DNA of 64,000 bases from a virus, in the IMG/VR virus record IMGVR_UViG_3300045988_136451; one strand, given 5' to 3'. The position numbers were made by a program, and so were the translations under genes. Position 1 is the stretch's first letter. Each line of letters starts with the position of its first letter. Below the pieces are notes generated by a model. That model searched no databases. It saw only the letters and a program-made list of their open reading frames with translations, and was not told the origin of the DNA. Below are positions 864-33,546 of this stretch, piece after piece.

Positions 864-1187
864 TCAGCCTTGCAGATTCAAACCTAGTTGCAGGGGGGGG
901 CACTCCTCCGAACGCGCCTCCTGCGGCCTCTGGGGCACCTTCGCGGGCGCTTTCCACCCCTCCTTGGTGTGGTACTCCGACGGGTGCCGCTCGAACTTCT
1001 GCAAGTAGTCGAGAATCTTCCCGCACGAATCGTGCCCGTAGCGGTAGAGCTTGCGCACCACCACGCACGTCAGAACCGGGTCTACCTCGTTCTCCAAGAA
1101 GCAGTCGAGGAGCGGCTTCGGGTCGTCCGGGCCGCACCTCTCCAACGCTTCGAGGAGTTCGCGGTAGCCCTTCCTCTCACCGGGCAC
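864..1187 (-). CDS. hypothetical protein
   Basis: 107-aa ORF, same strand as its neighbours. Contains a C8 run (893-900 on plus) that encodes CPPL near its C-terminus. Confidence 0.35.
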   Translation of the reverse strand: MPGERKGYRELLEALERCGPDDPKPLLDCFLENEVDPVLTCVVVRKLYRYGHDSCGKILDYLQKFERHPSEYHTKEGWKAPAKVPQRPQEARSEECPPLQLGLNLQG

Positions 1188-3042: not shown

Positions 3043-3058
3043 TCGATTATTTAATTCA
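3043..3058 (-). promoter_or_regulatory. AT-rich palindromic motif copy (degenerate right arm) upstream of gene 2711-3028
   Basis: Minus strand TGAATTAAATAATCGA-GAAAGGAGACGGAC-ATG. Confidence 0.5.
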
Positions 3059-3247
3059 GGCGAGCCGACGTATCTTGCCGGTTCCCCGGAAAATATGCCA
3101 CGAGCTTACCGGCACCTTCGCCCCGCACCCTCCGCACACCAGAACGTGGTCGAACTCGAAGCGCTCGTCCCCGTCGCAGCGCAGATCGTGCTCGACAGTC
3201 CATTCCGTCGGCTTCTCGCAGCGCGGGCAGTAAAGCCAATCGTCCAC
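3056..3247 (-). CDS. small zinc-ribbon protein (CPRC...CGGCG)
   Basis: ORF track extends to 3292, but that N-terminal extension is translated through an extended -10 promoter (TGGTAAGAT, 3273-3281). A GTG at 3247 is preceded by RBS AAAGGAGG, giving a 63-aa protein with two CxxC pairs. Confidence 0.45.
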   Translation of the reverse strand: MDDWLYCPRCEKPTEWTVEHDLRCDGDERFEFDHVLVCGGCGAKVPVSSWHIFRGTGKIRRLA

Positions 3248-3264
3248 AACGGCCTCCTTTCGTC

Positions 3265-3312
3265 CTCGTGCGATCTTACCACATTCCTTCACTGTTGTCT
3301 TAACTTTTTCTC
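3265..3312 (-). promoter_or_regulatory. promoter cassette copy 1: AAGACA, 17 nt, extended -10 TGGTAAGAT
   Basis: Minus strand AAAAAGTTAAGACAACAGTGAAGGAATGTGGTAAGAT. Follows terminator 3373-3394 and precedes RBS plus GTG of gene 3056-3247. Confidence 0.55.
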
Positions 3313-3325
3313 TTAATTCTTTTTT

Positions 3326-3925
3326 TTACTTTCGTCTTTCCGCATCCTGTTGAAGAGCGGTGGAAAAGCAAAGGGGCGGCCCGATGGCCGCCCCTCTCAA
3401 TCGCCCTGAAGCCCCCCCCCGGCGCTGCTCTTCCAGCGCCTCGTCCACGCGCCTCTCGATGCGGCCTTCCACGAGCCAGCACACGACCTCCGGCACCGTG
3501 AACGGATTGGAGGCGTGCCCTCCCGTAACCTCGTCGTAGACCTTGGGCACGATGTCGAGCAGCACGCTGTAGTCGTGCAGCTCCGCAAGCACCTTCTCCT
3601 TCGAGAGCGCGCCGTCCTCGTCGGTCACGAGCCGCAGCCAGAACTCCTCGTCGAACTCGCGCCTTTCGCCCCGCTTCTTCTCCGCGACCGCGCGCCCGGT
3701 CGTGTGCTCCGTTCCGGGGAACGGCTCGAACGTCACCGTCCCGTCGCCCGACCCGTGCAGCACCGCCGCGCCCTCGTAGCAGCCGTTGCACACGTCCATG
3801 TGCGCGCCGACCGCGTACGGCTCCGTCCTCTGCCCCCATCCGTTGCGGTCGAGCCATACGGGCACCACAACGCCGACGCGGATGTCTCCGTGGCCGAACT
3901 CGCCTCCGCACACCTCGCACCTCAC
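3326..3925 (-). CDS. hypothetical protein (CEVCGG...CNGC); C-terminus set by a G9 homopolymer
   Basis: The long ORF 3326-4111 is trimmed to GTG 3925, just after the stop of the upstream gene. A G9 run (plus 3412-3420) lies 30 codons from the end. As sequenced, the frame reads through the terminator hairpin at 3373-3394. With G8 it would stop (TGA) immediately before the hairpin. Confidence 0.4.
   Translation of the reverse strand: MRCEVCGGEFGHGDIRVGVVVPVWLDRNGWGQRTEPYAVGAHMDVCNGCYEGAAVLHGSGDGTVTFEPFPGTEHTTGRAVAEKKRGERREFDEEFWLRLVTDEDGALSKEKVLAELHDYSVLLDIVPKVYDEVTGGHASNPFTVPEVVCWLVEGRIERRVDEALEEQRRGGASGRLRGAAIGPPLCFSTALQQDAERRK
3373..3394 (-). terminator. intrinsic terminator hairpin (GGGGCGGCC-ATCG-GGCCGCCCC + U-rich)
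   Basis: Perfect 9-bp GC stem, then TTTGCTTTTCC on the transcribed strand. Confidence 0.6.
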
Positions 3926-4335
3926 GGCCTTCCTCCCTTCTTCTCGGCGAGCAGCATCTTGGCGCGCATCTCCGCGTAGCCGATCTTGTTGCCGCCGCCG
4001 TCGGTCACGCTCACGCACTTGCCGAGGTGCTGGGCGCACTCGACGGCGATTGACAGGTCGCCCTCCGCCCATTCGAGCAGCCTCTTCGCGCGCATGACAC
4101 CGCAGCGGCACGCCCCGTGCACGCGCAGCACCTTCTCCGTTGTAACGTCGCTCGTCTTAGGCGCAGCGTTTGGGCACACGTCGGACGGCTCGGCGCGGCT
4201 GCTCATGACGCGCTTGCGCGTCTCTATAGGAGCGCCGGGGTACTTCGCGCAGCGGCAACGGGCAAGCGACACGTCGCCCGCGTTCCACTCGCATCCGTCG
4301 CATAGGTACCAGCACGTCGTTCCCTCGTTATCCAT
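3922..4335 (-). CDS. Cys-rich hypothetical protein
   Basis: Trimmed to MDNEGTTCWYLCDGCEW, which carries an upstream RBS AAAGGA. Twelve Cys in 138 aa. Confidence 0.4.
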   Translation of the reverse strand: MDNEGTTCWYLCDGCEWNAGDVSLARCRCAKYPGAPIETRKRVMSSRAEPSDVCPNAAPKTSDVTTEKVLRVHGACRCGVMRAKRLLEWAEGDLSIAVECAQHLGKCVSVTDGGGNKIGYAEMRAKMLLAEKKGGRP

Positions 4336-4340
4336 CTTCT

Positions 4341-4484
4341 TCAATCCTTTCTCCGCACCACGCAGAACGGCACAATGAGGAACACGAACGCGGCCAGAAC
4401 GACGAGCGCCAGCGGCACCATTGCCGCGTCCTCCATGAACCCGGCGCACCCAGACGGCTGGCGGTTCTTGTAATGCGTGCTCAT
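4341..4484 (-). CDS. small membrane protein (single TM helix)
   Basis: 47-aa product with hydrophobic stretch VPLALVVLAAFVFLIVPFCVV. Its ATG overlaps the upstream stop (ATGA). Confidence 0.35.
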   Translation of the reverse strand: MSTHYKNRQPSGCAGFMEDAAMVPLALVVLAAFVFLIVPFCVVRRKD

Positions 4485-4681
4485 AGCGGCACCCCGAGCG
4501 TCGCCTTCAAGCTGTCGCGCGCCTGCGCCTTGGTGCTTCCGCATACCGCCTCTTCGACCTCCCACCCGCATTCTTCGCAGAAGGCGAAAGCGGCGATCTT
4601 AGCTTCCTCGTACCCGGTGTACTGCGTGGCTATGCGCACCGTTGACCCGCACCTCGGGCATTCGATATCGTATTTGCTCAT
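4481..4681 (-). CDS. small zinc-ribbon protein
   Basis: 66 aa: MSKYDIECPRCGSTV...CEECGW, with two CxxC pairs. Confidence 0.45.
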   Translation of the reverse strand: MSKYDIECPRCGSTVRIATQYTGYEEAKIAAFAFCEECGWEVEEAVCGSTKAQARDSLKATLGVPL

Positions 4682-4899
4682 AGCCTGAACCTTTCTTGCG
4701 CCCAACGCCGATAGATCGCGTCGAAGCGTTCGCTGTTCTCCGCGATGTACCGCTCGGCTTCCTCGCAGTCGGGCATCCCGCCCACGTAGCAGGCGCATTC
4801 GCCGTACTCCTCGCCGAACCTCGCGTGGTCGCCCACCATGCAATCGCCGGCGCAGCTTCCTCCGCTGACCTCGAACAGGCATTCACCCGAGTAGCACAC
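4678..4899 (-). CDS. small Cys-rich protein
   Basis: GTG start chosen at 4899 after a GAGGA RBS. Nine Cys in ~74 aa. Confidence 0.35.
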   Translation of the reverse strand: MCYSGECLFEVSGGSCAGDCMVGDHARFGEEYGECACYVGGMPDCEEAERYIAENSERFDAIYRRWAQERFRL

Positions 4900-5188
4900 C
4901 GTCGTCCTCGCTTTCCATGGTTTTAGCTTCGTAGTCGATCGACATGGAGCACATGAGCTTGAATTCTCGTTCGCACACCGGGCACTCCGCCTCGTTTTCG
5001 TACTCGTCTCCGCTGATCCATCCTTCGCGATCTTCGTAATCGACTTCGAGGCGAGCGCCGCAATGCGGGCATTCGTCCGGCATGATGCGTATCCTAGCCC
5101 CGTCGAACGCCGGTGCGCTTGCAAGCGTTTCTATCTGCTCCATCGCGGCCGATTCGAGGTTCTGCGCGTATATTTTCAAGTCGCTCAT
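4883..5188 (-). CDS. small zinc-ribbon protein (CPHCG...CPVCE)
   Basis: 101-aa ORF with two CxxC pairs and an acidic composition. Confidence 0.45.
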   Translation of the reverse strand: MSDLKIYAQNLESAAMEQIETLASAPAFDGARIRIMPDECPHCGARLEVDYEDREGWISGDEYENEAECPVCEREFKLMCSMSIDYEAKTMESEDDGVLLG

Positions 5189-6360
5189 AGCGTGTTCTCC
5201 TTTTCAACAATTGCGATTCTTTCGCCAATCCATCGCATCACCGGAACTGCCATGCTGTTCCCCAGGGCCTTATAACGAGGAGCGTCGGGGCATTCGTCCG
5301 CAGACTTCCCGCGATAGGGTATGCGCGTCCATTCGTCGGGAAAGCCTTGAAGTCGCTCGCATTCGACTGGCATGAGGCGGCGAACCGATAGCCCCTGCGT
5401 TACGGAGGGCGGCATTCCGCCGCATTTGAGCGTTCCGGAGAGCTCTGTGTCGCACGCGGCATTCGCCGTATCGTCTGCCAGGCATATCACCGGTTCATTG
5501 CCCTCGATCAAAACGGCTCCGCCGTCATGGCCCCCGGTGGCGTTCGTGTAAAGGGTTTGATAGGCCCCTTCGCAATGGAACACGCGCGTCGATTGCGTAT
5601 CCCATTTGTTCAGGCAGCTGTCGTACACGACGGCTGGAACGTCAATCGTGTTCAGCGTATAGCTCACGCCTTCCTGGTTGTAGCCCACGCCGTTCTGCCC
5701 GAAGTGAGCGCCGCGCGCTATATCACCTTGGATGCAATATGGCTCTTCACAGTGCTTGCGAGCGCCGCGTAGAGCTGCGGCGGCAAGCTCCTTCCTTTTC
5801 TCCTTGCTCGATCCATGATTCCAGCGCAGGTCTTCGCCTTCAAAGAGTACTTCGGCGGCACGTTCCCCGTCACCAAGACAGCCGACAAGGAACACACGCT
5901 CGCGTCTTTGTGCCAGGTCGAAAAACTGCGCATCGAGTACTCTCCACGCCATACCGTACCCGCACGCATCCATTTCGGATAGGAGCTGTCCGAAAGCCGC
6001 CCCGCCTTCGCTCGACAACGCTCCCGGGACGTTCTCCCACACAAACCATCGTGGACGGATTGCACGAACCGCTCGTATGTACTCGAACATGAGGCCGGAT
6101 TCTCCGGCAAGCCCTTCGCGGTTTCCCGCGACGCTGAATGACTGGCATGGGCTTCCGCCTGCCACAAGGTCAATTGATCCAACTCTATCACTCCAATCAA
6201 TGCGCGTTATGTCGCCGAGGTTCGGAACGGACGGGAACCTCTCGTTAAGCACGGCGCACGCGAACGGATCTATCTCGGAGAACGCCACAGGCTCCCAGCC
6301 GAGCGGTTCCCACGCAACGCTCGCGGCCTCTATTCCGCTGAAAAGGCTGATGTACTTCAT
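5185..6360 (-). CDS. DNA (cytosine-5)-methyltransferase
   Basis: Start at MKYISLFSGIEA, with ATGA overlap to the upstream gene. Canonical C5-MTase motifs in the canonical order: FSGIEA (motif I), GGSPCQSFSVAG (PC motif IV), ENV (VI), QGFPDEW and RYKALGNSMAVPV (IX/X). Confidence 0.9.
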   Translation of the reverse strand: MKYISLFSGIEAASVAWEPLGWEPVAFSEIDPFACAVLNERFPSVPNLGDITRIDWSDRVGSIDLVAGGSPCQSFSVAGNREGLAGESGLMFEYIRAVRAIRPRWFVWENVPGALSSEGGAAFGQLLSEMDACGYGMAWRVLDAQFFDLAQRRERVFLVGCLGDGERAAEVLFEGEDLRWNHGSSKEKRKELAAAALRGARKHCEEPYCIQGDIARGAHFGQNGVGYNQEGVSYTLNTIDVPAVVYDSCLNKWDTQSTRVFHCEGAYQTLYTNATGGHDGGAVLIEGNEPVICLADDTANAACDTELSGTLKCGGMPPSVTQGLSVRRLMPVECERLQGFPDEWTRIPYRGKSADECPDAPRYKALGNSMAVPVMRWIGERIAIVEKENTL

Positions 6361-6716
6361 CGGGCACCCGCCTTCCTCGCCCTGCGCTTCTGTGCGGCCC
6401 ACTGGCTCACGGTCTTAACCGGCATCATGAGGCTTCGGGCCACGTGAGCCTCTAGCTGCGCGCCCTCGCTGCGCTCCCACCCGTCGAGCATCGCGAGGCC
6501 GTCGGCCTGCGCGATGATCGCCATGAGGGTGATCCGCATTGCCGCCGGCCACTTCTCGCCGGGTCGCACGTCCCAGTGCGGGATGCGGACGATGTAGCCG
6601 CACGCCGCCAGCTCGTCGGCTGCGGCCTCGAACGCCTCGCGGTTGTCGTTTGGCATGCCGATGAGTTCCAGCTTGTCGTCGCGGAACGTCTTGTCGATAT
6701 ACGCTATCTTAGGCAT
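6357..6716 (-). CDS. DUF4406-like (nucleoside 2-deoxyribosyltransferase-like fold) protein
   Basis: MPKIAYI...GMPNDNREAFEAA...LDGWERSEGAQLE matches the conserved pattern of the small phage DUF4406 proteins (GWE.S.GA..E). Domain assignment is from memory, not a search. Confidence 0.5.
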   Translation of the reverse strand: MPKIAYIDKTFRDDKLELIGMPNDNREAFEAAADELAACGYIVRIPHWDVRPGEKWPAAMRITLMAIIAQADGLAMLDGWERSEGAQLEAHVARSLMMPVKTVSQWAAQKRRARKAGAR

Positions 6717-7923
6717 CCTCGCCCTCCTTCTCCAAAAGCTCGTCGATCTCGTCCTGTATGAGGTGCATGCCGAGGAACCGCAGGCCGCTCGAATTGTCGA
6801 TGATCTCGCGCAGCTCGGCGCGCGCACGCTTCGACAGGCGCGGCTGCCCTTTGAGCCAGACGAGAATCTTCTTGTAGTCGCTCTTGCCGAAGGCGTTGAC
6901 GGCGGCCTCCCTGCTGGCGTTCGACGACACCTTCGCCTCCAAGCCCTCGAACTCGTCGAGCGCGTCGTCGGCGATGGCGATTATCTTGGAGACGATCTTG
7001 TTCTCCTCGTGGAACTCGCTCGCCTTGGCATCGCTGCCGAGCGCCTGCCACATGCCCTTGGTTCCGACGAACGTCCCCTCGCCGAGGCCGTTCTTCTCGA
7101 AGTAGTAGCGCTTGAAGCCCTCGCACTGGTCTTCGTCTATCTCGTCTAGGACGGAATCTGCGTCGGACACGTCCAGATGCTTCTCGTCGAACGAGTTGAC
7201 GAGCAGGCTCACGTCCCCGCACGACGTGAGGGCGCGGGCCGTAAGCTCCTTCAGCTCGTAGTGGTTGATCGCCTTGCGGTCTCGGTCGAGGCTCACGTGC
7301 TCCGGCAGGAAGTCGTAGCCGTACGCGAAGCCGGTGTCCTCCTGCACGAACAGGCCGCCGACGTAGAACTTTCCCTTGTAGCGGCTCTCCAACATGATCG
7401 TCCCGTACTCGCTCTCGCGTTTCGCGCCGATGTCGCGGCCCATGAAGCGTTCGAGGGCTATGAACCTGTCCCCGAAGGAGCGCATCATGGCGGGCGAGAT
7501 GCCGCCGATGCGGAACTCCGTGAACTCGCCGCCCGGAACGCCGGTCTCCTCCACGTCGATCTGCAACGATTCCTCGCCGAACGTCTCGGACAGGCGGAAC
7601 TCCGGTGTCCAAGTCTCCGCGTCGGTGACGACCTTCACCGGCTTGCGCTCGCGCGTCAGCACCAGAAGCGCCAGCTTGTATCCCTCGCCGTACTTCCCGA
7701 TGTAGCGCTCGTCGTCCTTGCCCGATTCGCCGAGCAGGAGCGTCGATGTCTTCAGTCGCGCGCCGTCGGTGAGAATGGACAGCGTTTCGCGGTCGTACGA
7801 CACGGACACCTCCGCCCCGTCCGCCTTCTGGTCGATGGCGTTCTGCAAAATCTCGCGGACTGCCTCCTCCACGCCCCAGCCGCTCACGTACTTGGGCGAC
7901 AGGCTCAACTCGATGGTCTTCAT
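6709..7923 (-). CDS. GHKL/Bergerat-fold ATPase domain protein
   Basis: N-terminal EAVREILQNAIDQ (N-box, ExxxNAxD), LTDGARL (D-G box) and GKYGEGYK (G2 box). ATG is preceded by RBS AAGGAGG and palindromic motif 7938-7953. Confidence 0.5.
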   Translation of the reverse strand: MKTIELSLSPKYVSGWGVEEAVREILQNAIDQKADGAEVSVSYDRETLSILTDGARLKTSTLLLGESGKDDERYIGKYGEGYKLALLVLTRERKPVKVVTDAETWTPEFRLSETFGEESLQIDVEETGVPGGEFTEFRIGGISPAMMRSFGDRFIALERFMGRDIGAKRESEYGTIMLESRYKGKFYVGGLFVQEDTGFAYGYDFLPEHVSLDRDRKAINHYELKELTARALTSCGDVSLLVNSFDEKHLDVSDADSVLDEIDEDQCEGFKRYYFEKNGLGEGTFVGTKGMWQALGSDAKASEFHEENKIVSKIIAIADDALDEFEGLEAKVSSNASREAAVNAFGKSDYKKILVWLKGQPRLSKRARAELREIIDNSSGLRFLGMHLIQDEIDELLEKEGEDA

Positions 7924-7937
7924 GGCCCTCCTTGCTC

Positions 7938-7953
7938 TCGATTAAATAATCGG
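7938..7953 (-). promoter_or_regulatory. AT-rich palindromic motif (CCGATTATTTAATCGA) upstream of GHKL ATPase gene
   Basis: Minus strand CCGATTATTTAATCGA-GAGCAAGGAGGGCC-ATG; arms CGATTA/TAATCG. Confidence 0.55.
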
Positions 7954-7954
7954 C

Positions 7955-8010
7955 CTTGACCCATCTTACCACAAGCCTTAACTCTTGTCTTAACTTTTTC
8001 TTTCTTTTTT
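7955..8010 (-). promoter_or_regulatory. promoter cassette copy 2: TTAAGACA, spacer, TGTGGTAAGAT
   Basis: ~90% identical over ~45 nt to copies at 3265-3312 and 12076-12128. Located between terminator 8027-8050 and palindromic motif 7938-7953. Confidence 0.55.
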
Positions 8011-8026
8011 TATCTTACAAAAGAAA

Positions 8027-8050
8027 AGGGGAGGGCTTGTGGCCCTCCCC
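8027..8050 (-). terminator. intrinsic terminator hairpin (GGGGAGGGC-CACAA-GCCCTCCCC + UUUUCUUUUG)
   Basis: 9-bp stem followed by a U-run, just after the stop of gene 8052-8372. Confidence 0.6.
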
Positions 8051-8051
8051 G

Positions 8052-8372
8052 TCACCACGCCGTCTGCCTGCGGAACGGGCATCTCGTCCGGGCGCACGAC
8101 TTCCTCGCCACCTCGACGGCGCAGCACGTGTTCGCCTGATCTCCGCACATAGGGGACGCCACGTGCCAGCCGGGGCCTAGAACCGTTTCGGCCAGCCGGT
8201 CGAGGGCGGCCTGCGCGTCGGTCGGCTGCGGCATGATGCCGTAGTCCCCGCCGTTGCCGGTCGCCCCGCTTTCGTCAACGAACGAGAGCGTGATCTGATA
8301 CCCTCTGTTTATGTTGTCCATCTGCTGGTCGAAGTCCTTCTTCTCCATCTTGGTCGGGAACTTCGCCTCCAT
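8052..8372 (-). CDS. hypothetical protein
   Basis: Trimmed to MEAKFPTKMEKK. Followed by an intrinsic terminator hairpin at 8027-8050. Confidence 0.35.
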   Translation of the reverse strand: MEAKFPTKMEKKDFDQQMDNINRGYQITLSFVDESGATGNGGDYGIMPQPTDAQAALDRLAETVLGPGWHVASPMCGDQANTCCAVEVARKSCARTRCPFRRQTAW

Positions 8373-8389
8373 GCTCCCGCATGCCGCCG

Positions 8390-9091
8390 TCACCCTTCGC
8401 ATGCCCCTCCTATCTCCTCCAACGTCCTGCGCTTCATGTTGCCAAGCACCTCCTCCATGGCGACGAGCCGCCGCCAGCAGTCTGGCAGGTTCTCCTTGAT
8501 CGCGCGCAGTTCCTTCTGGTTCTTGTTCTTGCAGCACCAGCACGACACCCTGTCCAAGATGTCGTACAGGCGCACGCCGTCCTGCTCCCACTCATGGCCG
8601 TGGGCGTAGCACGCGGCGAGGCAGTCGGCCTCGCGCATGCCCCAGTCAGCGAGCGGGAAGCGCTTGTAGGGCTTGCGCTCCTTTTCGAGGCGCGCCGTCT
8701 CGTCTGCGGCTATGCCGACGTACACGGTCGCCCCCCCCAGCTCCCTCTCCGCATGGCGGTCTATCGCCCGCAGCTTCTCGGTCGTGCCCCAGCGGCACGG
8801 GCCGCCGCACCAGCCGTAGCCGTGCTTGTGGACTTCGCCGGTCTTCCGGCTTTTGACCGGGCGGCAGAACATGCTCCACCAGAACGGGTCTTTGGGGCGC
8901 AGCTCGACGTAGCGGATGCCGTTCTCGCGCAGCAGCGGCAGCATGCGGTCGCGCTCGGCGTAGATCGCGTCGAACTCCATGCCCGTGTCGTAGAAGACAA
9001 CCTCGTCGAGCGGCATGCCGCGCTCGATCAGGCCGTGCAGCATGGCGAGGCTGTCCTTGCCCCAGCTGACGCTTGCGATGCAGCGCTTCAT
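8390..9091 (-). CDS. PAPS reductase / PP-loop ATP pyrophosphatase family protein
   Basis: Start MKRCIASVSWGKDSLAML; SWGKDS is the PP-loop (SGGKDS) motif. Contains an in-frame G8 run (plus 8731-8738). Family assignment is by motif. Confidence 0.75.
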   Translation of the reverse strand: MKRCIASVSWGKDSLAMLHGLIERGMPLDEVVFYDTGMEFDAIYAERDRMLPLLRENGIRYVELRPKDPFWWSMFCRPVKSRKTGEVHKHGYGWCGGPCRWGTTEKLRAIDRHAERELGGATVYVGIAADETARLEKERKPYKRFPLADWGMREADCLAACYAHGHEWEQDGVRLYDILDRVSCWCCKNKNQKELRAIKENLPDCWRRLVAMEEVLGNMKRRTLEEIGGACEG

Positions 9092-9093
9092 GG

Positions 9094-9252
9094 CTACCCT
9101 TCCCTCTCGTCGGCGCGCCTGCGCCTCGCGGCCCTCTTGTCCTGCTCGGCCTTGCACTCCGGGCCGCAGTATTTCTGGTTGCGGGAGTTCTTCGCGAACG
9201 TCCTCCCGCACACCGGGCACGTCCCCGTGCCGCGCGCCTTCCAACCGGTCAT
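9094..9252 (-). CDS. small zinc-ribbon protein (CPVCG...CGPEC)
   Basis: 52 aa. ATGA overlap with the upstream gene. Confidence 0.45.
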   Translation of the reverse strand: MTGWKARGTGTCPVCGRTFAKNSRNQKYCGPECKAEQDKRAARRRRADEREG

Positions 9253-9632
9253 CCCTCGCTCCTCTCCCTCGGCATCCCTCCACGGTAAAGCCCCGCCTCC
9301 TTCAGTCGGCGCAGGGCGAGCCGCTGCCTCGCGTTGCACCGCCCTAGGGCGCAGTCGTTCCACACGGCCACGCACCGGGTCATCTCGCACAGAGCGTCCA
9401 TGCACCCGCAGGCGGGCAGCACGTCCCACGCCTGACCCTGCTCGACGAAGCCGCGCAGGCGCATCAGCTTGCGGACGAGCCATTCCTGATGCGACGGGAC
9501 GGCGTAGTGCGGCGTTCCTCCCTCGTCGATGCACACCTCCAAGTAGTTCACGAAGGTCGCCTTGTGCGTCTCGATGTCGAAGGGGGAGCGCAGCACGCGC
9601 TGCTGCTCCGACGCTCCGGGGAGGCTACTCAT
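9249..9632 (-). CDS. hypothetical protein
   Basis: 127-aa ORF, same strand, overlapping its neighbours by a few nt. Confidence 0.45.
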   Translation of the reverse strand: MSSLPGASEQQRVLRSPFDIETHKATFVNYLEVCIDEGGTPHYAVPSHQEWLVRKLMRLRGFVEQGQAWDVLPACGCMDALCEMTRCVAVWNDCALGRCNARQRLALRRLKEAGLYRGGMPRERSEG

Positions 9633-10051
9633 CGTCCGTCTCCGTGGTCATCCAGTCCTCGACGCTGCCAAGCTCGTCTGCGGCGCACAGGATGCGCGCG
9701 AAGGGGTACTCCGGCACCTCCATGTCGCCAGCCGCCTCCAAGCCGATCACGTCGTTCAGGAGGTCGTTCGCCTCCGTGACGGCGGCGCGCCAGTCCTTCT
9801 GCGCATCGACGCTCCCGTAGGTCGCCTCGAAGATGTCGGGCTTCACGGGGTACAGCTCCCCCTTGATGCCCTTCACGATGTAGTCGCCCTTGCGCGCCGT
9901 CATGCTCCCTTCGAGCGTGCGCACCTTCGCCTCGCCGTCCGGGGTCAGGCGCAGAACGCCGCTCTCGAACGCGACGTGCCCCCCACTCCGGGGTCGCCTC
10001 CTCGCCGTAGCGCCACGCCTCGATCTCCAACGGCTTCTTCCTGTACCTCAT
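9625..10051 (-). CDS. conserved small phage protein, interrupted by a frameshift at a G6 run
   Basis: ATG at 10051 sits 5 nt after a perfect AGGAGG and encodes MRYRKKPLEIEAWRYGEEATPEW. After a G6 run (plus ~9979-9984) the sensible continuation (GHVAFESGVLRLTPDGEAKVRTLEGSMTARKGDYIVKG..., the ORF 9625-9924) is in the -1 frame. G5 would give one ~140-aa protein. Confidence 0.45.
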
Positions 10052-10218
10052 CGCCCCTCCTCGTTTTCGCACTCGTCGCATCTGTCGCTCGTCGGCTCGT
10101 AGTCTCTTATCCCCAAGTCGAGCCAGTCGCGCAAGATGCGCAGCTTGCGCGTGTCGGGTTCCTCGGGGATGACGGCCTCGTAGCGGCCTCTCTCGTCTTC
10201 CAGCTCAATTCTCGGCAT
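10048..10218 (-). CDS. hypothetical small acidic protein
   Basis: 56 aa from MPRIELEDERG; RBS AGGAG 9 nt upstream. Confidence 0.4.
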   Translation of the reverse strand: MPRIELEDERGRYEAVIPEEPDTRKLRILRDWLDLGIRDYEPTSDRCDECENEEGR

Positions 10219-10231
10219 GTCGGCGCTCCTC

Positions 10232-10453
10232 TCAATCAGTCTCGTACCGCTTGATGTCCTCGCGCCAGCGCAGCTCGTCTCCGAACCCAACGCCCTCAAG
10301 CTCGCCCGTGGAGACCACGCGCCCCTCGTCGTCCAGAGGGTACAGCGCCGTGTTGCCGTCGAACAGCGACACGACGGCTATGCGGTGCTTCAGCGTGAGG
10401 GCGGTCAGGTCTTCGAGGAACGCCGCAGCGTCCCTCGCGTCAGTCGTCCCCAT
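10232..10453 (-). CDS. hypothetical protein
   Basis: 73-aa ORF. Confidence 0.4.
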   Translation of the reverse strand: MGTTDARDAAAFLEDLTALTLKHRIAVVSLFDGNTALYPLDDEGRVVSTGELEGVGFGDELRWREDIKRYETD

Positions 10454-10733
10454 CGCAGCCGCCCTTCGGCTCGTCGAGCGCGGCCTGCGCGTCGCGCAGA
10501 GCGTCGGCGACCATGCGCCCCATGCGCCTAGCCCAGCAGAACAGCAGGAAGGCGCACAGCACGAGGAACGAGGCGTAGCACAGGAAGCCCCATGCCGCCC
10601 CGAACATCACGCCAGCGCCTATGGAGCCTACCAGCCCCGCAGCTCCGAACAGCAGGCCTCCCAGCAGCCACGAGCAGCCGATCAGCGCGTCCTCGTCCTT
10701 CTCGCTCTTGTCCACGTCGAACTCCATCCTCAT
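10440..10733 (-). CDS. small membrane protein (two predicted TM helices)
   Basis: Hydrophobic segments LIGCSWLLGGLLFGAAGLVGSIGAGVMFGAAWGFLCYASFLVLCAFLLFCW. Confidence 0.45.
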   Translation of the reverse strand: MRMEFDVDKSEKDEDALIGCSWLLGGLLFGAAGLVGSIGAGVMFGAAWGFLCYASFLVLCAFLLFCWARRMGRMVADALRDAQAALDEPKGGCDGDD

Positions 10734-11122
10734 CGCTCGCCCTCCGGCTCCGTCGGCAGCTCAATCCACCTCTTGCAGTTCTCCACGTTCTGGTCGAACG
10801 ACAGCAGCACGTCGTCCCAGCCCTCCCCGTCGGGCGGAGGGCCGAAGCTGCAAGACACCCCGGTCTCGTGCCTCTCCCCCGTGATCGTCATGACGTAGGA
10901 CAGGCGCGGCTCCTCCGCCCCGTCGCGCTTCAGCACGTCGAAGGCGTACTCGATGCCTATGGGCGTTCCAAGCCTCGCCTCCTCGCGCACCTTGGCGCGC
11001 ATGCGCTCGACGACGGCCACGAACTCGTCCGGCACCCCCGCCTCGCGCATCTCCTTCTTCCACGCCCTCGGCCCCGGCTCAACGCCGGGGACGTACCGCT
11101 GCATGCTGACCGGCCCTTCCAT
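10730..11122 (-). CDS. hypothetical protein
   Basis: Trimmed to MEGPVSMQRY. TGATG overlap with the upstream stop. Confidence 0.4.
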   Translation of the reverse strand: MEGPVSMQRYVPGVEPGPRAWKKEMREAGVPDEFVAVVERMRAKVREEARLGTPIGIEYAFDVLKRDGAEEPRLSYVMTITGERHETGVSCSFGPPPDGEGWDDVLLSFDQNVENCKRWIELPTEPEGER

Positions 11123-11397
11123 CACAGCCCCTTCCTGTGCTCGTCGTCGAGGCGCGCGTACTCCCTGCGCTCCTTCTGCGTCGATGCGCGCAGGCACGCC
11201 TCGGCCTCCTCGTCCGACACGTCGAGGCCGATGCCGTCGGGCGTGCGGAGGACGATGCGGCGCAGCCCGTTCTTCAGCGTGTACTTCATGTAGACCTTGA
11301 CCGGCGTTCCCTCCGGCGTGACCACGGGCGCGCCGTCCTCCCCGTAGGTGGTCAGGTCGCAGTCGAGGGCGTAGACGCTCCCCATGCGCTTAGTCAT
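11122..11397 (-). CDS. hypothetical protein
   Basis: Trimmed to MTKRMGSVYALDCDL. Confidence 0.4.
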   Translation of the reverse strand: MTKRMGSVYALDCDLTTYGEDGAPVVTPEGTPVKVYMKYTLKNGLRRIVLRTPDGIGLDVSDEEAEACLRASTQKERREYARLDDEHRKGL

Positions 11398-11884
11398 CGG
11401 CCCCTCCGATCTCCGCGTAGCAGCCGGGCCGCCAGCGCTCGCCCTCCACGTCCTCGGGCAGCGGCGCAACGGGGCGGATGTGCCCGTGCGAGACGTGCAG
11501 CATGTCGCAGCGGTTGCCCAGCGGCTTCAGCTCCTCCATGGCGCGAAGGGCGCGCCGCACGGTCTCCGGCAGCTTGCGCGCGTCGTCGCGCACGCCGACC
11601 GAGATGCGCAGGGAGCGACCATCGAACGGTATGCCCTCGTACGGGCCGACGGCACCGCCGCATGACAGCTGCGCGCAGAACTCGACCGTCGTGCGCATCT
11701 CCTCGCCCTCGATCTCCCCGGACGTGCTGCCGTAAAGAAGGTAGCCGCCGATCTTGCCGTTGCCCTTCGCCTCGCGCAGCATGTTCGAGCAGCGGCGCAC
11801 GGCATCGACGCTCTCGTCGTCGTCGATGCCGAACGCCTCCAAGAAGCGCTTGGCCTCCTTCAGCTCCTTGCCGTTGCCTCTCAC
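11390..11884 (-). CDS. hypothetical protein
   Basis: The track ORF (to 12085) runs through a promoter. A GTG at 11884 is preceded by RBS AAAGGAG and palindromic motif 11900-11915. Confidence 0.4.
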   Translation of the reverse strand: MRGNGKELKEAKRFLEAFGIDDDESVDAVRRCSNMLREAKGNGKIGGYLLYGSTSGEIEGEEMRTTVEFCAQLSCGGAVGPYEGIPFDGRSLRISVGVRDDARKLPETVRRALRAMEELKPLGNRCDMLHVSHGHIRPVAPLPEDVEGERWRPGCYAEIGGADD

Positions 11885-11899
11885 TCGCCGTCTCCTTTC

Positions 11900-11915
11900 T
11901 CGATTAAATAATCGG
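11900..11915 (-). promoter_or_regulatory. AT-rich palindromic motif upstream of gene 11390-11884
   Basis: CCGATTATTTAATCGA-GAAAGGAGACGGCGA-GTG. Confidence 0.55.
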
Positions 11916-12075
11916 GCCGTCGTGCTCGCCTTCGTCGGCCACAAGGCACTTGTCGTCCCCCGTCGGCGACGTAGACGAGGAACATGGCGCTCGCGCGCAA
12001 TACCTCCTTCTCGTCCCCGTCGCCCATGCCCGTGATGCTGATCTCCAAAACGGTCTCCTTCCGCTCGGTTTCGCG

Positions 12076-12128
12076 ATACGGTCATCTTACCACAAGTCTT
12101 ACACTTTTGTCTTAACTTTTTCTTTTAC
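12076..12128 (-). promoter_or_regulatory. promoter cassette copy 3 (CTTGTGGTAAGAT)
   Basis: Minus strand AAAAAGTTAAGACAAAAGTGTAAGACTTGTGGTAAGATG. The GT(T/G)TAAGA(C/T) element recurs three times at ~11-nt phasing. Confidence 0.55.
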
Positions 12129-12311: not shown

Positions 12312-12327
12312 TCGATTATTTAATCGG
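12312..12327 (-). promoter_or_regulatory. AT-rich palindromic motif overlapping stop of 12320-12727, upstream of the candidate ncRNA
   Basis: CCGATTAAATAATCGA, with the TAA stop inside the motif. Confidence 0.5.
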
Positions 12328-14305: not shown

Positions 14306-14321
14306 TCGATTATTTTATCGA
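14306..14321 (-). promoter_or_regulatory. AT-rich palindromic motif (TCGATAAAATAATCGA) upstream of gene 14105-14290
   Basis: TCGATAAAATAATCGA-GAAGGAGCAGAGACA-ATG. Confidence 0.55.
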
Positions 14322-14383
14322 CTGGGAACAGACTATCACAAATATGCTATTGTTAAAAGAAGAATTAAGAAAAAAACTAAGAT

Positions 14384-14746: not shown

Positions 14747-14833
14747 GCCGCGCCTCCTCGTTCGGAAGCGCCCATGGCGCGGGGCTGCTTGTAAGACAAG
14801 AGTGAAGAAATTGAGTGCGTCATTGTAAGAGCC

Positions 14834-15449: not shown

Positions 15450-15505
15450 AGCATACCACTTCCCCGCCCGAATGTAAAATAAGAAATTAAGAGAACAGTT
15501 AAGAC
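15450..15505 (-). promoter_or_regulatory. sigma70-type promoter TTTACA-17-TGGTATGCT with upstream TTAAGA repeats
   Basis: Minus strand GTCTTAACTGTTCTCTTAATTTCTTATTTTACATTCGGGCGGGGAAGTGGTATGCT, upstream of gene 15069-15391. Confidence 0.55.
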
Positions 15506-16146
15506 TTCCGTTCCGCCATCCGTTCCAGCTCGGCCATGCGCATGCGCCGGTCGTAGATGCGCTCGACGCGCCGCACCATAGCGTCCATCCTGTCCACCAA
15601 GTCCTTTGCCTTCTTCCAGTAGTGCGAGCAGAACTGCGCGCGCCAGCGCTCCCTCTGCGCCATGAGCGTCGCCGTGGCGGCCCTCGCGTCCACCGTGCCG
15701 GAAAGCGGCTCGTTGTACGCCTTGCTGTACACCTCGTTGTAGAACATGGTGGCGTAGGCGGCCTCGGCCTGCGCGTTGATCGACTGCTGGCTGTCGAACA
15801 CGATGTACTGCGTCGCCGCAAGCACGAACTCCTCCATGTCCTTCAGCGTGAGCTGCGTCCAGTCCTCGACGTAGCTGCCGTTCGCGTTGCGCGCGTACCC
15901 TCCGCCCGCCGCGACGGGGAGGCGCTGGCGCACCTTGGAGATGAACTGCGCCTCGATCTCGAACAGCTGGGCGTACTCGCTCGCCAGCCTCTCGTCCGCC
16001 GCCTTCAGCAGCATGTCCATCATGCGCCTGTCCTCCGGCTCGAACTTCAAGACGGAATCGAGCGGCATTGATGCCATCCCCGTCTCGTCGAGCCTCGGCT
16101 TCTCGTCCACGATCTCATCGATGGGCGGCGCTTCCCTCTCCGTCAT
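15499..16146 (-). CDS. hypothetical protein
   Basis: Trimmed to MTEREAPPIDEIV (RBS AAGGAGG). ATGA overlap with recU. Confidence 0.45.
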   Translation of the reverse strand: MTEREAPPIDEIVDEKPRLDETGMASMPLDSVLKFEPEDRRMMDMLLKAADERLASEYAQLFEIEAQFISKVRQRLPVAAGGGYARNANGSYVEDWTQLTLKDMEEFVLAATQYIVFDSQQSINAQAEAAYATMFYNEVYSKAYNEPLSGTVDARAATATLMAQRERWRAQFCSHYWKKAKDLVDRMDAMVRRVERIYDRRMRMAELERMAERKS

Positions 16147-18234: not shown

Positions 18235-18244
18235 TTGCCCCCCC

Positions 18245-19408
18245 CTATTCCTTGAACTCGCCAGCGCCAGCGTCGGCGGTCTTCAGGTAGCTTTCCGATT
18301 CTCCGATGACGACGGCCATGGTGTCGTCGTGCACGGCCTTGGCGAACTCCGGGTTGTCGCGCAGAAGGCCAACCATCTTCGCCTTGCCCTGCGCCTTCAC
18401 GAAGCCCTTCTCGCCCTCGGTGCCGTAGGACATCCACGAGCCGGACGTTTTCAGAACGCCGTAGGATACCGCCAAGTCCACGAGGCTGTCGGCGCTGTCA
18501 ACGCCGAACGGATGGTCTGGCGTTTCGGTGTAGTAGAACATGTACCCGGCCTCGCGGTACGGCGTTGCCAGCTTGTTCTTCCGGTTGCGCGTGATGATGC
18601 GCGTGCCGATCTTGACGCGCTCGCCGTGGATGTCGGCCCACTTGATGTCGTCGGCCTTGCCGGATGCCCTGATCTCCGTGATGGTCTTGCACATGTGCTT
18701 CAGGCCCTCTCCGCCGGAGATGATGAGGCCTCCGTGGGGCGACTTCAGGTTGATGCGGGCTTGGCCTATGTAGATGATGACGGGCAGCACAACGTCCGCA
18801 CCGGCGCGCTTGGCGTTGCTTATGCGGGTAAGCTCCGCGTTCACGCGGTTCACCATGCGCGTGATGACCCCGGCGCTACCGGCGACCTGCATGGCGTTAG
18901 CGTCGCCGCCGTCGCCCTTCTTGCCATCGACCTCAACGCCGCGCGCGACCGCGCCCAAGCTGTCAACCACGATCACGTCGAAGATGCCCTCGCGGATGAT
19001 CGCGCAGAGGCTGTTGGCGGCGTTCTCAACGGTGTCGGGGGTCGAGACCCACACGCGGTTCTTGCGCGGGTTGTCGTAGTCGAACTCTATCCCGTCGAAC
19101 TTCTCCAACCATTGCGGGGTTACGCTTCCCTCGATGTCCACGATGCACGCAAGCGCCTTCGGGTCGAACGACAGGAGACGGCCTATGGCGCAGTTGATGA
19201 GCGACGACTTGCCAGCCGAGTACTCGCCCATCACCATGTGCTGGTGCCCTCGCATCCACCCTCCGCCCAGCGCCGCATCGAGCGTGTCCGCGCCGGTCGA
19301 TATTACGCCGACCGAGTAGTCTATCTGCTGGGTCGGCACGAAGAACGAGCCGGGAGCCTCGTTCTTCAGAAGGTTGTCCAAACCTTTCTCCCTGTTCAGT
19401 CCCATCAC
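18245..19408 (-). CDS. recA: RecA/RadA-family recombinase
   Basis: LDAALGGGWMRG, then Walker A GEYSAGKSSL and Walker B VIVVDSLGA. Confidence 0.7.
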   Translation of the reverse strand: MMGLNREKGLDNLLKNEAPGSFFVPTQQIDYSVGVISTGADTLDAALGGGWMRGHQHMVMGEYSAGKSSLINCAIGRLLSFDPKALACIVDIEGSVTPQWLEKFDGIEFDYDNPRKNRVWVSTPDTVENAANSLCAIIREGIFDVIVVDSLGAVARGVEVDGKKGDGGDANAMQVAGSAGVITRMVNRVNAELTRISNAKRAGADVVLPVIIYIGQARINLKSPHGGLIISGGEGLKHMCKTITEIRASGKADDIKWADIHGERVKIGTRIITRNRKNKLATPYREAGYMFYYTETPDHPFGVDSADSLVDLAVSYGVLKTSGSWMSYGTEGEKGFVKAQGKAKMVGLLRDNPEFAKAVHDDTMAVVIGESESYLKTADAGAGEFKE

Positions 19409-22638: not shown

Positions 22639-22664
22639 TCCGTGCCCCCCCCTATCCATGTCTC

Positions 22665-22680
22665 TCGATTATTTTATCGA
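22665..22680 (-). promoter_or_regulatory. AT-rich palindromic motif upstream of dnaE, overlapping the HNH gene stop
   Basis: TCGATAAAATAATCGA-GAGAC-ATG. The embedded TAAAAT lies 17 nt downstream of an AAGACG -35-like hexamer. Confidence 0.55.
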
Positions 22681-23171
22681 ACGTCCTTGTACGTCTTTCC
22701 ATCGCGCACCTTCTGCACCGTGCCGATGGACACTCCGAACTTTTCGGCAAGGGAGGCGAGCGTTCCGCCTCCCCTTATCTCTAAAACCTGCTCTCGCGTC
22801 AGCTTGCGCTTGTCATGATGCATGTAGTTGCCGTACGGCTCTAGCCCCTCGGCGGCGCGTCGTGCCGCATCGGCCCTGCGATGGCACGCAGTGCACATCC
22901 ACTCGACCTCCAACGGCTTCGCGTAATCGTCATGGTGCGCCTCTATGCGCTTCTCCGGCGCTGTCGCCCCGCATTTTGAGCAAACCTGCGGGTTGACCAA
23001 CACCCCGGCCTTTATGGCCTCATAAACGGCTCTCTGGGCATTCTGCTTAGTTGGGTTCTTTGAGCATGTTTTCAGCCTAGTCCCCAAAACTTTCTCCGGG
23101 TGTTCGAGCTTATACCTACGAACTCGCTCTTTGACCTTTTCTTTGTCAACTAGGTAATACTTGCCTTGCAT
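22674..23171 (-). CDS. HNH homing endonuclease with C-terminal HTH
   Basis: CSKCG...EAHHDDY...WMCTACH is an HNH/zinc motif; LASLAEKFGVSIGTVQKV looks like an HTH. Locally AT-rich codons. Own consensus promoter at 23209-23237. Free-standing between dnaE and ssb. Confidence 0.7.
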   Translation of the reverse strand: MQGKYYLVDKEKVKERVRRYKLEHPEKVLGTRLKTCSKNPTKQNAQRAVYEAIKAGVLVNPQVCSKCGATAPEKRIEAHHDDYAKPLEVEWMCTACHRRADAARRAAEGLEPYGNYMHHDKRKLTREQVLEIRGGGTLASLAEKFGVSIGTVQKVRDGKTYKDVR

Positions 23172-23208
23172 GGGGCTACCGCCTTTCTACTAATTCGGCA
23201 ATAGCCCC

Positions 23209-23237
23209 ATTATGCATCAATACTTATACCATGTCAA
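23209..23237 (-). promoter_or_regulatory. near-consensus promoter TTGACA-17-CATAAT driving the free-standing HNH endonuclease
   Basis: Minus strand TTGACATGGTATAAGTATTGATGCATAAT, between the SSB-like gene stop and the HNH start. Confidence 0.6.
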
Positions 23238-25379: not shown

Positions 25380-25430
25380 ATCATACCATGGCTGTAAGCC
25401 AAAAGTTAAAACAAAAAGTTAAGAATACGC
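25380..25430 (-). promoter_or_regulatory. extended -10 promoter TGGTATGAT with upstream TCTTAACTTTT direct repeats
   Basis: Minus strand TTCTTAACTTTTTGTTTTAACTTTTGGCTTACAGCCATGGTATGAT, upstream of gene 25189-25353. Confidence 0.5.
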
Positions 25431-26353: not shown

Positions 26354-26369
26354 TCGATTATTTTATCGG
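26354..26369 (-). promoter_or_regulatory. AT-rich palindromic motif upstream of primase gene; TAAAAT sits 17 nt from TTTACC
   Basis: GCTTTACC-17 nt-TAAAATAATCGACG-ATG. The motif doubles as a -10 element here. Confidence 0.55.
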
Positions 26370-26413
26370 ATGTTAAAGAAAAGGTAAAGCAAGAATTAAG
26401 ACAATAATGAAGA

Positions 26414-28759: not shown

Positions 28760-29583
28760 TACCATATCCTCCCGCCGCGTCGGCGCTCGCGCGCTTTCTC
28801 GCGCATGTCCTCGCCGTCCACGCGCACGAGGTCGAAGCTCTCCGTGAACAACGATAGGACGTACTTGTTGTAGGCGGTCTCCAACCCCGAAGGGCACGAC
28901 AGGTTCGTCGTGACGATGGTGGGCCGCGACTGCTGCGTGCGCACGCGCAGAAGGTTCTCGATCTGCCCTATGGCGTAGTCGGTGCCCTTCGCGCCGAAGC
29001 CTCCCTCTATCTCCTTGCCGAGGTCGTCTAGGACGAGGACGCGGGCAGCGTCTATCTTGCGCTTGTACCACTTCGCGTACTTCGCGTTGTTCCACCCCCG
29101 CTTCGTGTTCTCGATGTAGTCCTTGGCCGTGGTCATGTAGCACTCGATGCCGCGCCGCACGGCCTCCTTCAGGGCGAAGGAGGCGAGCATCGTCTTCCCC
29201 GTGCCAGCCTTGCCGAACATGACGAACCCGCGCCCTTCGAGCATGTTCACGTCGAGCGCGTCGATGTATCCCTTCACGAACGCCTGCGCGTTCCGGTCTC
29301 CGAAATAGTCGTTCCAGTTCAAGCGCTGGTAGGTGAGGCCGATGCCCGCGTTCAGGTAGTGCTTGTAACGCTGTAGCTGGTCGGCGCAGTTGCACCGCAT
29401 CAGCGCGCCGTCAACGACCACCGTGCCGTCCACCCCCTCGCCGCAGTTCTTCATGCAGGTGGGGCAGAAGTACAGGTGGCTCGCTCCGAGGTCGGGGTAA
29501 ACCTCGTACAGCTCGTCAGCGTCGTCCTGCGACAGCGCCATGTCCACGAGGGCCGAATCTTCGAGCCTCCCCGTCACATCCAT
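28759..29583 (-). CDS. DnaC/IstB-like AAA+ helicase loader
   Basis: Trimmed to MDVTGRLED (RBS AAGGAG 6 nt upstream). N-terminal Zn finger CPTCMKNC...CNC. Walker A GKAGTGKTML and Walker B LVLDDLG. Confidence 0.7.
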   Translation of the reverse strand: MDVTGRLEDSALVDMALSQDDADELYEVYPDLGASHLYFCPTCMKNCGEGVDGTVVVDGALMRCNCADQLQRYKHYLNAGIGLTYQRLNWNDYFGDRNAQAFVKGYIDALDVNMLEGRGFVMFGKAGTGKTMLASFALKEAVRRGIECYMTTAKDYIENTKRGWNNAKYAKWYKRKIDAARVLVLDDLGKEIEGGFGAKGTDYAIGQIENLLRVRTQQSRPTIVTTNLSCPSGLETAYNKYVLSLFTESFDLVRVDGEDMREKARERRRGGRIW

Positions 29584-31319: not shown

Positions 31320-31378
31320 ATGTTAAACGGTCTCGCGACCGTTGTAAAGATAAAAGTTAAGAATAAAAGTTAAGACTT
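31320..31378 (-). promoter_or_regulatory. promoter TTTACA-17-TAACAT with perfect 7-bp hairpin (AACGGTC GCGA GACCGTT) in the spacer and tandem TCTTAACTTTTAT repeats upstream
   Basis: Minus strand GTCTTAACTTTTATTCTTAACTTTTATCTTTACAACGGTCGCGAGACCGTTTAACAT, upstream of gene 30694-31281. Confidence 0.5.
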
Positions 31379-33517: not shown

Positions 33518-33546
33518 AGTGTAAGACAAGAAGTTAAGAAAATCAA
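33518..33546 (-). promoter_or_regulatory. promoter TTGATT-17-TACACT upstream of SNF2 helicase gene
   Basis: Minus strand TTGATTTTCTTAACTTCTTGTCTTACACT, directly downstream of terminator 33556-33584. Confidence 0.5.

Follow-up and report, generated by a model that had tools for sequence, protein, structure and literature searches.

A triplicated cassette in an LE2-3-like Eggerthella phage, probably a promoter read by the host primary sigma factor, with a 12- to 13-nt unit that recurs inverted at a second class of promoters

In a 64,000-nucleotide (nt) stretch of viral DNA, IMG/VR record IMGVR_UViG_3300045988_136451 (the window, along which positions are numbered unless another record is named), three near-identical elements each precede a gene. 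We asked what these elements are, what reads them, and what the short units repeated within them contribute. An earlier note on this DNA had proposed a triplicated promoter cassette. The triplication is real, with three minus-strand copies that share 85 to 93% pairwise identity over a core of 40 to 41 nt, and their reading as promoters finds good support in their position, in their sequence, and in comparison with relatives. The explanation that we favor, at a probability of about 0.65, is that the cassettes are promoters used by the primary sigma factor of the host (SigA/sigma-70 type), with two upstream units increasing recruitment of the polymerase; they are most likely strong promoters.

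Most of the window was 97.7 to 99.7% identical (megablast) to Eggerthella phage LE2-3 (MW679026.1), a 111,961-bp record of a phage of Eggerthella lenta DSM 2243 with a myovirus-type gene set, and by this match the phage is an LE2-3-like lytic E. lenta myophage. The window is the reverse complement of the LE2-3 record, and essentially all annotated genes therefore lie on its minus strand. Its GC content is about 63%; only 15 AT-rich islands occur in the 64 kb, and 3 of the 15 are the cassettes. For comparison we drew on a related lineage, represented by L011 and L047 (PolIII protein 78% identical, GC content of 52 to 54%), and on a more distant relative, L016 (45% identity). ThyX was tried as an anchor for finding phage relatives and given up because the family is too widespread (it helped only in extending a low-GC relative), and phage PhiKL11 (44 kb) proved unrelated. 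A literature search found no paper on the transcription or 5' ends of LE2-3-like phages.

The core of the cassette runs from GAGAAAAAGTTAAGAC to TGTGGTAAGAT. Copy 1 has its core at 3312-3273 (GAGAAAAAGTTAAGACAACAGTGAAGGAATGTGGTAAGAT), with the -10 hexamer TAAGAT at 3278-3273, TGTG at 3283-3280, and a GTTAAG box at 3304-3299. The core of copy 2 lies at 8002-7963 (AAGAAAAAGTTAAGACAAGAGTTAAGGCTTGTGGTAAGAT; -10 at 7968-7963, GTTAAG box at 7994-7989) and that of copy 3 at 12124-12084 (AAGAAAAAGTTAAGACAAAAGTGTAAGACTTGTGGTAAGAT; -10 at 12089-12084, GTTAAG box at 12116-12111), where one additional base stands between units. All three are on the minus strand. The string TGTGGTAAGAT occurs exactly three times in the window, always on the minus strand (3273-3283, 7963-7973, and 12084-12094), against 0.16 expected from shuffles, and a profile of the cassette found only three strong sites in 64 kb (nhmmer, E values of 1e-12 to 1e-15). 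Furthermore, AAGTTAAGA occurs seven times against 0.06 expected, three times on the minus strand in the cassettes and four times on the plus strand in arrays at other promoters. When the cassettes were aligned, similarity started near -46 and stopped at the last base of TAAGAT, the hexamer present in 3/3 window copies and often followed by GG. Each cassette is intergenic and lies 20 to 35 nt ahead of a ribosome-binding site (RBS) and start; 25 to 39 nt separate the end of its core from the start codon, with the RBS between them. Two open reading frames (ORFs), 3056-3292 and 11390-12085, run through the -10 elements; the earlier note had dismissed these extensions as spurious, in keeping with the better, RBS-preceded starts at 3247 and 12048.

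Next, we looked into which positions are conserved across eight distinct versions of the cassette from two phage lineages (three from the window, two from LE2-3, and three from the L011/L047 lineage). The complete LE2-3 genome has four cassette sites, at 1.6, 9.4, 50.8, and 111.4 kb, of which the 9.4-kb site lies between two tRNA genes and has TAACAT as its -10; the sites of the related lineage are at 22.8 kb in L011 and at 3.7 and 15.4 kb in L047. T-17, G-16, T-15, G-14, T-12, A-11, A-8, and T-7 were invariant in 8/8 versions, and positions -10 and -9 varied (TAAGAT, TAACAT, TAATAT, TAGAAT), as did everything downstream. Such a pattern, in which T-12, A-11, A-8, and T-7 are retained together with TGTG and -10 and -9 are free to change, is the one expected of an extended -10 element read by a primary sigma factor, and the earlier note was right to call an extended -10. 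Moreover, TGTGGTAAGATGG agrees with tgngnTA(c/t)aaTgg, which is the SigA consensus described for Corynebacterium glutamicum (PMC1779776) and not for the host class, the Coriobacteriia, for which we found no paper describing a promoter consensus. Ptac drives expression in E. lenta (PMC9734109), which indicates that E. coli-type promoters work there. The signature TAnnnT-G(G/T) is common to all promoter classes of the genome, including the promoters of structural genes that consist of a -10 alone (below), which points to a single sigma factor.

The upstream part of the cassette was conserved as well. All eight versions keep GTTAAG (at -38 to -33 in six and at -39 to -34 in two), and a second unit, AGT-n-AAG, is conserved at -27 to -21. 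The cassette can therefore be described as three head-to-tail units of 12 to 13 nt, AAAAGTTAAGAC / AAAAGTTAAGAC / TTGTGGTAAGAT, the last of which forms the -10. Successive units in the window and LE2-3 were spaced by 12 nt in 12 cases and by 13 nt in 20, and never by 10, 11, 14, or 15 nt, so that the 11-nt phasing proposed earlier was wrong. Unit position 2 was C in 44/59 units (manual segmentation). An A-tract at -43 to -39 stands ahead of GTTAAG, and an A5G tract can be read at -44 to -39. The UP element of E. coli rrnB P1 has a proximal subsite AAAAAARNR at -46 to -38 and a distal one, NNAWWWWWTTTTN (PMC4132738). Copy 2 matches this E. coli proximal consensus at 8/9 positions over -46 to -38. 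Farther upstream, in the distal region, copies 1 and 2 are rich in A and copy 3 is not.

The same unit is used in the opposite orientation at other promoters: AAAAGTTAAGA is the reverse complement of TCTTAACTTTT, and the 10-mer AAAGTTAAGA, the reverse complement of TCTTAACTTT, is found in either orientation, at different positions. Two to four forward units, T-C-T-T-(T)-A-(A/C)-C on the coding strand, followed by a T-rich tail, occupy at least seven further intergenic sites of the window (at 14.3, 14.8, 15.5, 25.4, 26.4, 31.3, and 33.5 kb; LE2-3 has four more elsewhere). Seven arrays of at least two units were counted in the window, against 0.075 in shuffles that preserved local composition. 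Five of these sites had been listed in the earlier note as related repeats in either orientation; all five carry the unit opposite to the cassettes, and the arrays at 26.4 and 14.8 kb had been missed. In most of these promoters, class B (the cassettes being class A), one unit at about -36 forms a normal -35 (TTTACA, TTTACT, or TTTACC) 17 nt from a TAnnnT hexamer that is often preceded by TG, and the remaining units are centered near -49 and -62 and, in some cases, near -24. It is the module of SNF2, helicase, primase, DnaJ, and recombination genes that class B promoters serve. In the L011 and L014 orthologs of these promoters both hexamers, -35 and -10, are retained and the spacers differ (for example, TTTACA-17-TAACAT with unrelated spacers).

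The class B promoters, all on the minus strand, differ in how the units are placed. At 31320-31375 the array reads TCTTAACTTTTAT / TCTTAACTTTTA / TCTTTACA-17-TAACAT, and its L011 ortholog has TTTACA-17-TAACAT with a different spacer. The promoter at 15450-15504, TCTTAAC / TCTTAAT / TTTTACA-17-(GTGG)TATGCT, is also called by a plain sigma-70 scan; its L014 ortholog reads TTTACA-17-(ATGG)TAAGATGGG. Four forward units with TTTACC-17-TAAAAT precede the primase gene at 26360-26413, where the -10 overlaps a copy of a palindrome described below. Units TCTTAAC, TTTTAAC, and CTTACA, followed by ATGGTATGAT, lie at 25380-25424, and units TCTTAG, TCTTAAT, and TTTTAAC, followed by TGTGATAGTCT and then by a palindrome at 14320-14307, lie at 14330-14382. 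Before the SNF2 gene, at 33518-33546, the promoter is TTGATT-17-TACACT, with forward units TCTTAAC and TCTTACA in the spacer and forming the -10 (TTGATA-17-TACAAT in L011). The short two-unit array at 14789-14808 (TCTTCACTCTTG / TCTTACAA) yielded no confident -10. Plus-strand (antisense) promoters, which the inverted array could in principle provide, were also considered and rejected: none of the plus-strand TTnAC units is followed by TAnnnT at a distance of 16 to 18 nt, and the arrays extend into the terminators upstream.

A further type was found before structural, lysis, and some other genes in the LE2-3 intergenic regions checked, where a -10 stands alone in GC-rich DNA (TAGAATGTCC, TATAATGTCC, TACAATGGGG); the part downstream of it is conserved, and both an AT-rich array and a -35 are missing. 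In LE2-3 coordinates these regions are 15466-15531, 29367-29514, 33589-33658, and 36323-36394, together with 61352-61427, 70325-70381, 75114-75169, and 79610-79679, which correspond to about 44.9 to 62.3 kb of the window. The three architectures would fit three gene modules, namely, early accessory, replication, and late.

The cassettes head three consecutive minus-strand operons, of which the first two, those of copies 3 and 2, end at terminators. The copy 3 operon runs from 12.05 to 8.05 kb; its last gene is Tad8-like (a match just above the Pfam cutoff) and is followed by an intrinsic terminator at 8018-8050 (minus strand; 9-bp stem, then TTTTCTTTTG), directly before copy 2. The copy 2 operon runs from 7.92 to about 3.4 kb, with DUF4406 and a cytosine methyltransferase (by motif) downstream of its first gene, and ends at the terminator at 3396-3362 (minus strand; 11-bp GC stem, 4-nt loop, then TTTGCTTTT), whose hairpin is present in the centroid structure and which precedes copy 1. 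The copy 1 operon runs from 3.25 kb toward the window start and encodes small zinc-ribbon and weakly Lar-like proteins. That every copy follows a terminator or weak hairpin, as claimed earlier and as a "moron"-like independent unit of terminator, promoter, and gene would have it, thus held for copies 1 and 2 (hairpin plus T-tract) and failed for copy 3, whose upstream region folds no better than shuffles (z = +1.0). Given that these operons consist of small accessory genes, some with weak matches to antidefense families, the cassettes are probably early promoters.

The first genes are all on the minus strand. Behind copy 1 lies LE23_5 (3056-3259; RBS AAGGAGG at 3259-3253, GTG at 3247), encoding a 63-amino-acid (aa) zinc-ribbon-like protein, and behind copy 3 lies LE23_140 (11881-12060; RBS AAGGAGA at 12060-12054, TTG at 12048), encoding a 55-aa protein. 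Behind copy 2 (6709-7953) come a palindrome, CCGATTATTTAATCGAG, at 7953-7937, an RBS at 7933-7926, and an ATG at 7923 that opens a 404-aa protein with a weak, subthreshold HATPase_c_3 match. The earlier note had placed a palindrome, RBS, and start after two of the copies, and this order stood for copy 2 and not for copies 1 and 3: copy 3 has its nearest palindromes about 170 nt away on the downstream side and about 190 nt away on the upstream side, and copy 1 has none. The copy at 3.7 kb in L047 precedes the ortholog of the gene behind copy 2, and the palindrome again follows.

The palindrome CGAT(T/A)A(T/A)(T/A)TAATCG occurs eight times in the window against 0.07 expected (7939-7952, 11901-11914, 12313-12326, 14307-14320, 22666-22679, 26355-26368, 45385-45398, and 49474-49487). 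At least 5 of the 8 copies stand within about 25 nt upstream of a recognizable RBS or start codon, in some places without a nearby promoter, which suggests an operator that acts on translation or RNA and not a classical one at a promoter. In relatives, this place is taken by a different palindrome (CTCAATAAATTAATTGAG in L013 and L045, CCCTAAATAAATATTTAGGG in L016). A search with Rfam at gathering thresholds found no known RNA family in window positions 1-36000, and a known RNA family was rejected on that basis.

The 50.8-kb site of LE2-3 (50787-50852; locus L005, 787-852) lies outside the window. This fifth copy is inside ORF LE23_73 ("antirestriction protein"), with an in-frame ATG and RBS about 30 nt downstream; either an internal promoter yields a 75-aa C-terminal product or the ORF is overextended.

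We then looked for the cassette elsewhere. Two scans of viral contigs found it on LE2-3-like contigs only, BLAST against GenBank phages found it in LE2-3 only, and a metagenome scan recovered 28 contigs from the human gut; the same five loci appeared throughout, and the units hardly varied except in the length of the A-tract. By these searches the cassette is confined to this phage lineage. When 185,579 genomes were scanned for AAAGTTAAG-N15-17-TGTGNTANNAT, the matches listed came from unrelated taxa and none from Coriobacteriia.

How these parts would work together can be put as follows. Recognition would rest on the extended -10, TGTG-n-TAAGAT, and extended -10 promoters can work without a -35. 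The two upstream copies of AAAAGTTAAGAC would place A5G at the position of the proximal UP subsite, bound in E. coli by the alpha subunit's C-terminal domain, and the units may in this way raise polymerase recruitment in a genome of 63% GC. On the other strand, the same unit (TCTTAACTTTT), in tandem at the replication-module promoters, would supply a conventional -35 through its TTnAC core.

Several observations weigh against this explanation. The plain sigma-70 scan did not call the cassettes (8/12 hexamer matches, with a threshold of 9). The -35-like TAAGACA of the earlier note is doubtful: AAGACA matches a -35 at 4/6 positions and is separated from the -10 by 17 nt (copies 1 and 2) or 18 nt (copy 3), and the hexamer at -35 to -30 is not conserved, being replaced by AAGGAA or AGGAAT in two of the three versions from the L011/L047 lineage. 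The invariant GTTAAG, taken as a -35, would need a 19-nt spacer. Moreover, the second unit is conserved inside the spacer, which the polymerase does not normally read; the fixed G/C positions and the 12- to 13-nt period, which is not the helical repeat, are not predicted by a simple A-tract or UP explanation; and the orientation of the unit is opposite in the two promoter classes. Early timing, finally, is a prediction from gene content. Since the fixed G/C positions, the unit in the spacer, and the period are left unexplained by polymerase recognition, a role for a regulator stays alive, and the earlier wording, "UP-like" elements or sites for a second regulator, was a fair statement of the alternatives.

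The alternative that survives best, and that we hold possible at clearly less than even odds, keeps the cassettes as promoters and takes the units as operators for a sequence-specific DNA-binding protein of phage or host. At the cassettes the sites would lie at about -8, -20, and -32, where a protein sitting on them would block the promoter and turn the early genes off; at the replication module they lie at -36 and upstream in the opposite orientation, where it could recruit or compete with the polymerase, the two together giving a temporal switch. The conserved G/C positions and strict spacing speak for such a protein, as does the retention across lineages of GTTAAG at -38/-39 and of AGT-n-AAG where the nominal -35 is lost, and so does the use of one 10-mer in both orientations at different positions. 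In addition, relatives of 38 to 39% GC, in which AT-richness is not distinctive, retain TCTTAA(T/C) arrays at a period of 12 to 13 nt, and L016 has a 13-nt unit of its own, T(A/G)TTTACTTTTCC, and encodes a 63-aa helix-turn-helix (HTH) protein like sigma-70 region 4. Against it, this L016 protein has no homolog in the window, in LE2-3, or in L011 to L015. Our search for a regulator covered 32 small early proteins of the window (30 searched with Pfam and 20 with PHROGs) and found no HTH, sigma, or other DNA-binding family among them (remote homologs are possible), so that neither search nor relative offered a candidate for a phage-encoded regulator or sigma factor. Furthermore, a period of 12 to 13 bp would put successive sites on different faces of the helix, and in most class B promoters one unit coincides with an ordinary -35, spaced by 17 nt from the -10, which the polymerase alone explains. 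The fuller version, that TCTTAACTTTT / AAAAGTTAAGA is the site of a putative regulator in a Coriobacteriia myophage family and that the orientation and position of the array set the outcome, seems to us a little less likely again. If it were true, inverted arrays (-8 to -45) would switch early accessory-gene promoters off and forward arrays (-36 to -62) would control replication-module promoters, a new temporal-switch logic drawn from one asymmetric site.

It is unlikely, in our judgment, that the units are a by-product, the AT-rich promoter DNA of this GC-rich genome having arisen by slippage duplication of a short -35/-10-like segment, one inversion of which gave the cassette type. The functional parts would then be the extended -10 only, plus a -35 where present, and the copies would be near-identical because a mobile promoter cassette had recently been duplicated or had undergone gene conversion. 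In keeping with this, two periods (24 to 25 nt) equal the distance from -35 to -10, and the forward unit can give a -35 (TTTACA) or a -10 (TACACT), as the inverted unit gives the -10 TAAGAT. About 75 nt are common to copy 2 and the 9.4-kb copy of LE2-3, a similarity that takes in the T-tract of the upstream terminator and reaches about 8025, and the DNA downstream is unrelated (a protein gene behind copy 2, a tRNA region behind the LE2-3 copy). A copy of the same 9.4-kb type, in the tRNA region of the metagenomic genome L048 (about 18640-18671; ENA contig k141_107074), has lost 8 nt of its second unit between AGT repeats (AAAGTTAAGACAAGAGTGTGGTAACAT), which brings the GTTAAG box 8 nt nearer the -10. 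However, in a lineage with flanks that cannot be aligned, the upstream units are still conserved both in where they lie and in what they read, which implies purifying selection on them, and the near-invariance of the units in the 28 metagenomic contigs also argues against a by-product. The idea that the promoters are recombination breakpoints was rejected, as the breakpoints between the window and LE2-3 (4917 and 11561) and between the window and IMG-VR (7687) fall outside the cassettes.

That the cassettes are read by a sigma factor or RNA polymerase of the phage instead of host SigA is highly improbable: the copies are as alike as is typical of phage-polymerase promoters, and most phage proteins have no assigned function, but the positions conserved coincide exactly with those of an extended -10 of the primary-sigma type and match an actinobacterial SigA consensus, neither the proteins tested nor the annotation of LE2-3 showed a sigma or polymerase domain, and the same -10 signature marks all other promoter types of the genome.

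Some features of the surrounding genome are recorded here in their own right. Copy 2 lies within a 6.6-kb segment, 4917-11561, that is absent from the LE2-3 record. This segment codes for the cytosine methyltransferase (by motif), the weak HATPase_c_3 protein, DUF4406, and the Tad8-like homolog of a Thoeris inhibitor, and one further protein looks PAPS-reductase-like by eye. At 11561 its right-hand boundary falls precisely on the ends of the "circular" LE2-3 record, across whose junction LE23_141 is annotated; the LE2-3 assembly may therefore be incomplete there, and the segment may not have been lost from that phage. A second stretch that does not match LE2-3, 36891-37474, contains an ORF of low GC3. 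A 165-aa endonuclease gene (22674-23237; PHROG 2340/HNH), not present at this place in LE2-3, lies in a low-GC island immediately upstream of the gene for PolIII alpha and has its own promoter; this homing-endonuclease insert has a canonical TTGACA-17-CATAAT at 23237-23209. The DnaB-type helicase (26414-28759, 781 aa) carries a LAGLIDADG-type intein-like insert, and its orthologs in L011 to L013 have 433 aa.

Runs of eight or nine G residues occur seven times in the window (893-900, 3412-3420, 8731-8738, 18238-18245, 22645-22652, 50663-50671, and 51555-51563), six of the seven on the coding (minus) strand. Two stand at the place of a Shine-Dalgarno sequence (TAGGGGGGGGCAAATG at 18.2 kb and ATAGGGGGGGGCACGGAATG before PolIII alpha); the PolIII run is kept in L014, and L011 has a similar run upstream of primase.

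Almost nothing is known of promoters in Coriobacteriia and their phages, and the cassette offers a compact (about 45 nt), probably strong promoter with natural variants, a candidate expression part for E. lenta genetics. Together with the other promoters it also gives a first working map of transcription units for an LE2-3-like phage. Should the unit prove to be a regulator site, it would define gene timing in this phage family; otherwise, the cassettes belong to ordinary phage promoter biology.

Several known systems resemble the cassettes in part. Short tandem direct repeats control promoters through SARP heptamers in Streptomyces, phi29 p4, TP901-1 Alt, and omega-protein heptads, and in T4 the MotA box replaces the -35. 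As leads, these systems share with the cassettes short asymmetric head-to-tail units at the -35 region, in either orientation, and a retained -10 with some other conserved box in place of the -35; they differ in the period (12 to 13 nt here) and sequence of the unit, and no cognate regulator was found in this phage. With the rrnB P1 UP element of E. coli the cassettes share the A5G tract, the proximal match of copy 2, and AT-rich DNA from -40 to -60, whereas the conserved G/C positions, the period, and the unit in the spacer are not UP features. A weak or absent -35 is common in promoters of Actinobacteria. The likeness to actinobacterial SigA promoters lies in TGTG-n-TAnnAT-GG in every cassette copy, the invariant T-12, A-11, and T-7, and a weak or absent -35 (PMC1779776); compared with the C. 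glutamicum consensus, the cassettes add two conserved upstream units of 12 to 13 nt, and the host belongs to the Coriobacteriia. Some lytic phages, for their part, carry families of near-identical strong early promoters, such as A1 to A3 of T7, P25, P26, and P28 of T5, and the early promoters of T4 and SPO1. Like these, the cassettes come in several copies that are conserved beyond the hexamers, are AT-rich upstream, and head terminator-bounded operons of small early genes that would be served by unmodified host polymerase; unlike them, their upstream part is a tandem unit that is reused, inverted, at a second promoter class. As host-primary-sigma promoters the cassettes are ordinary phage biology, and what sets them apart is a repeat unit used in two orientations.

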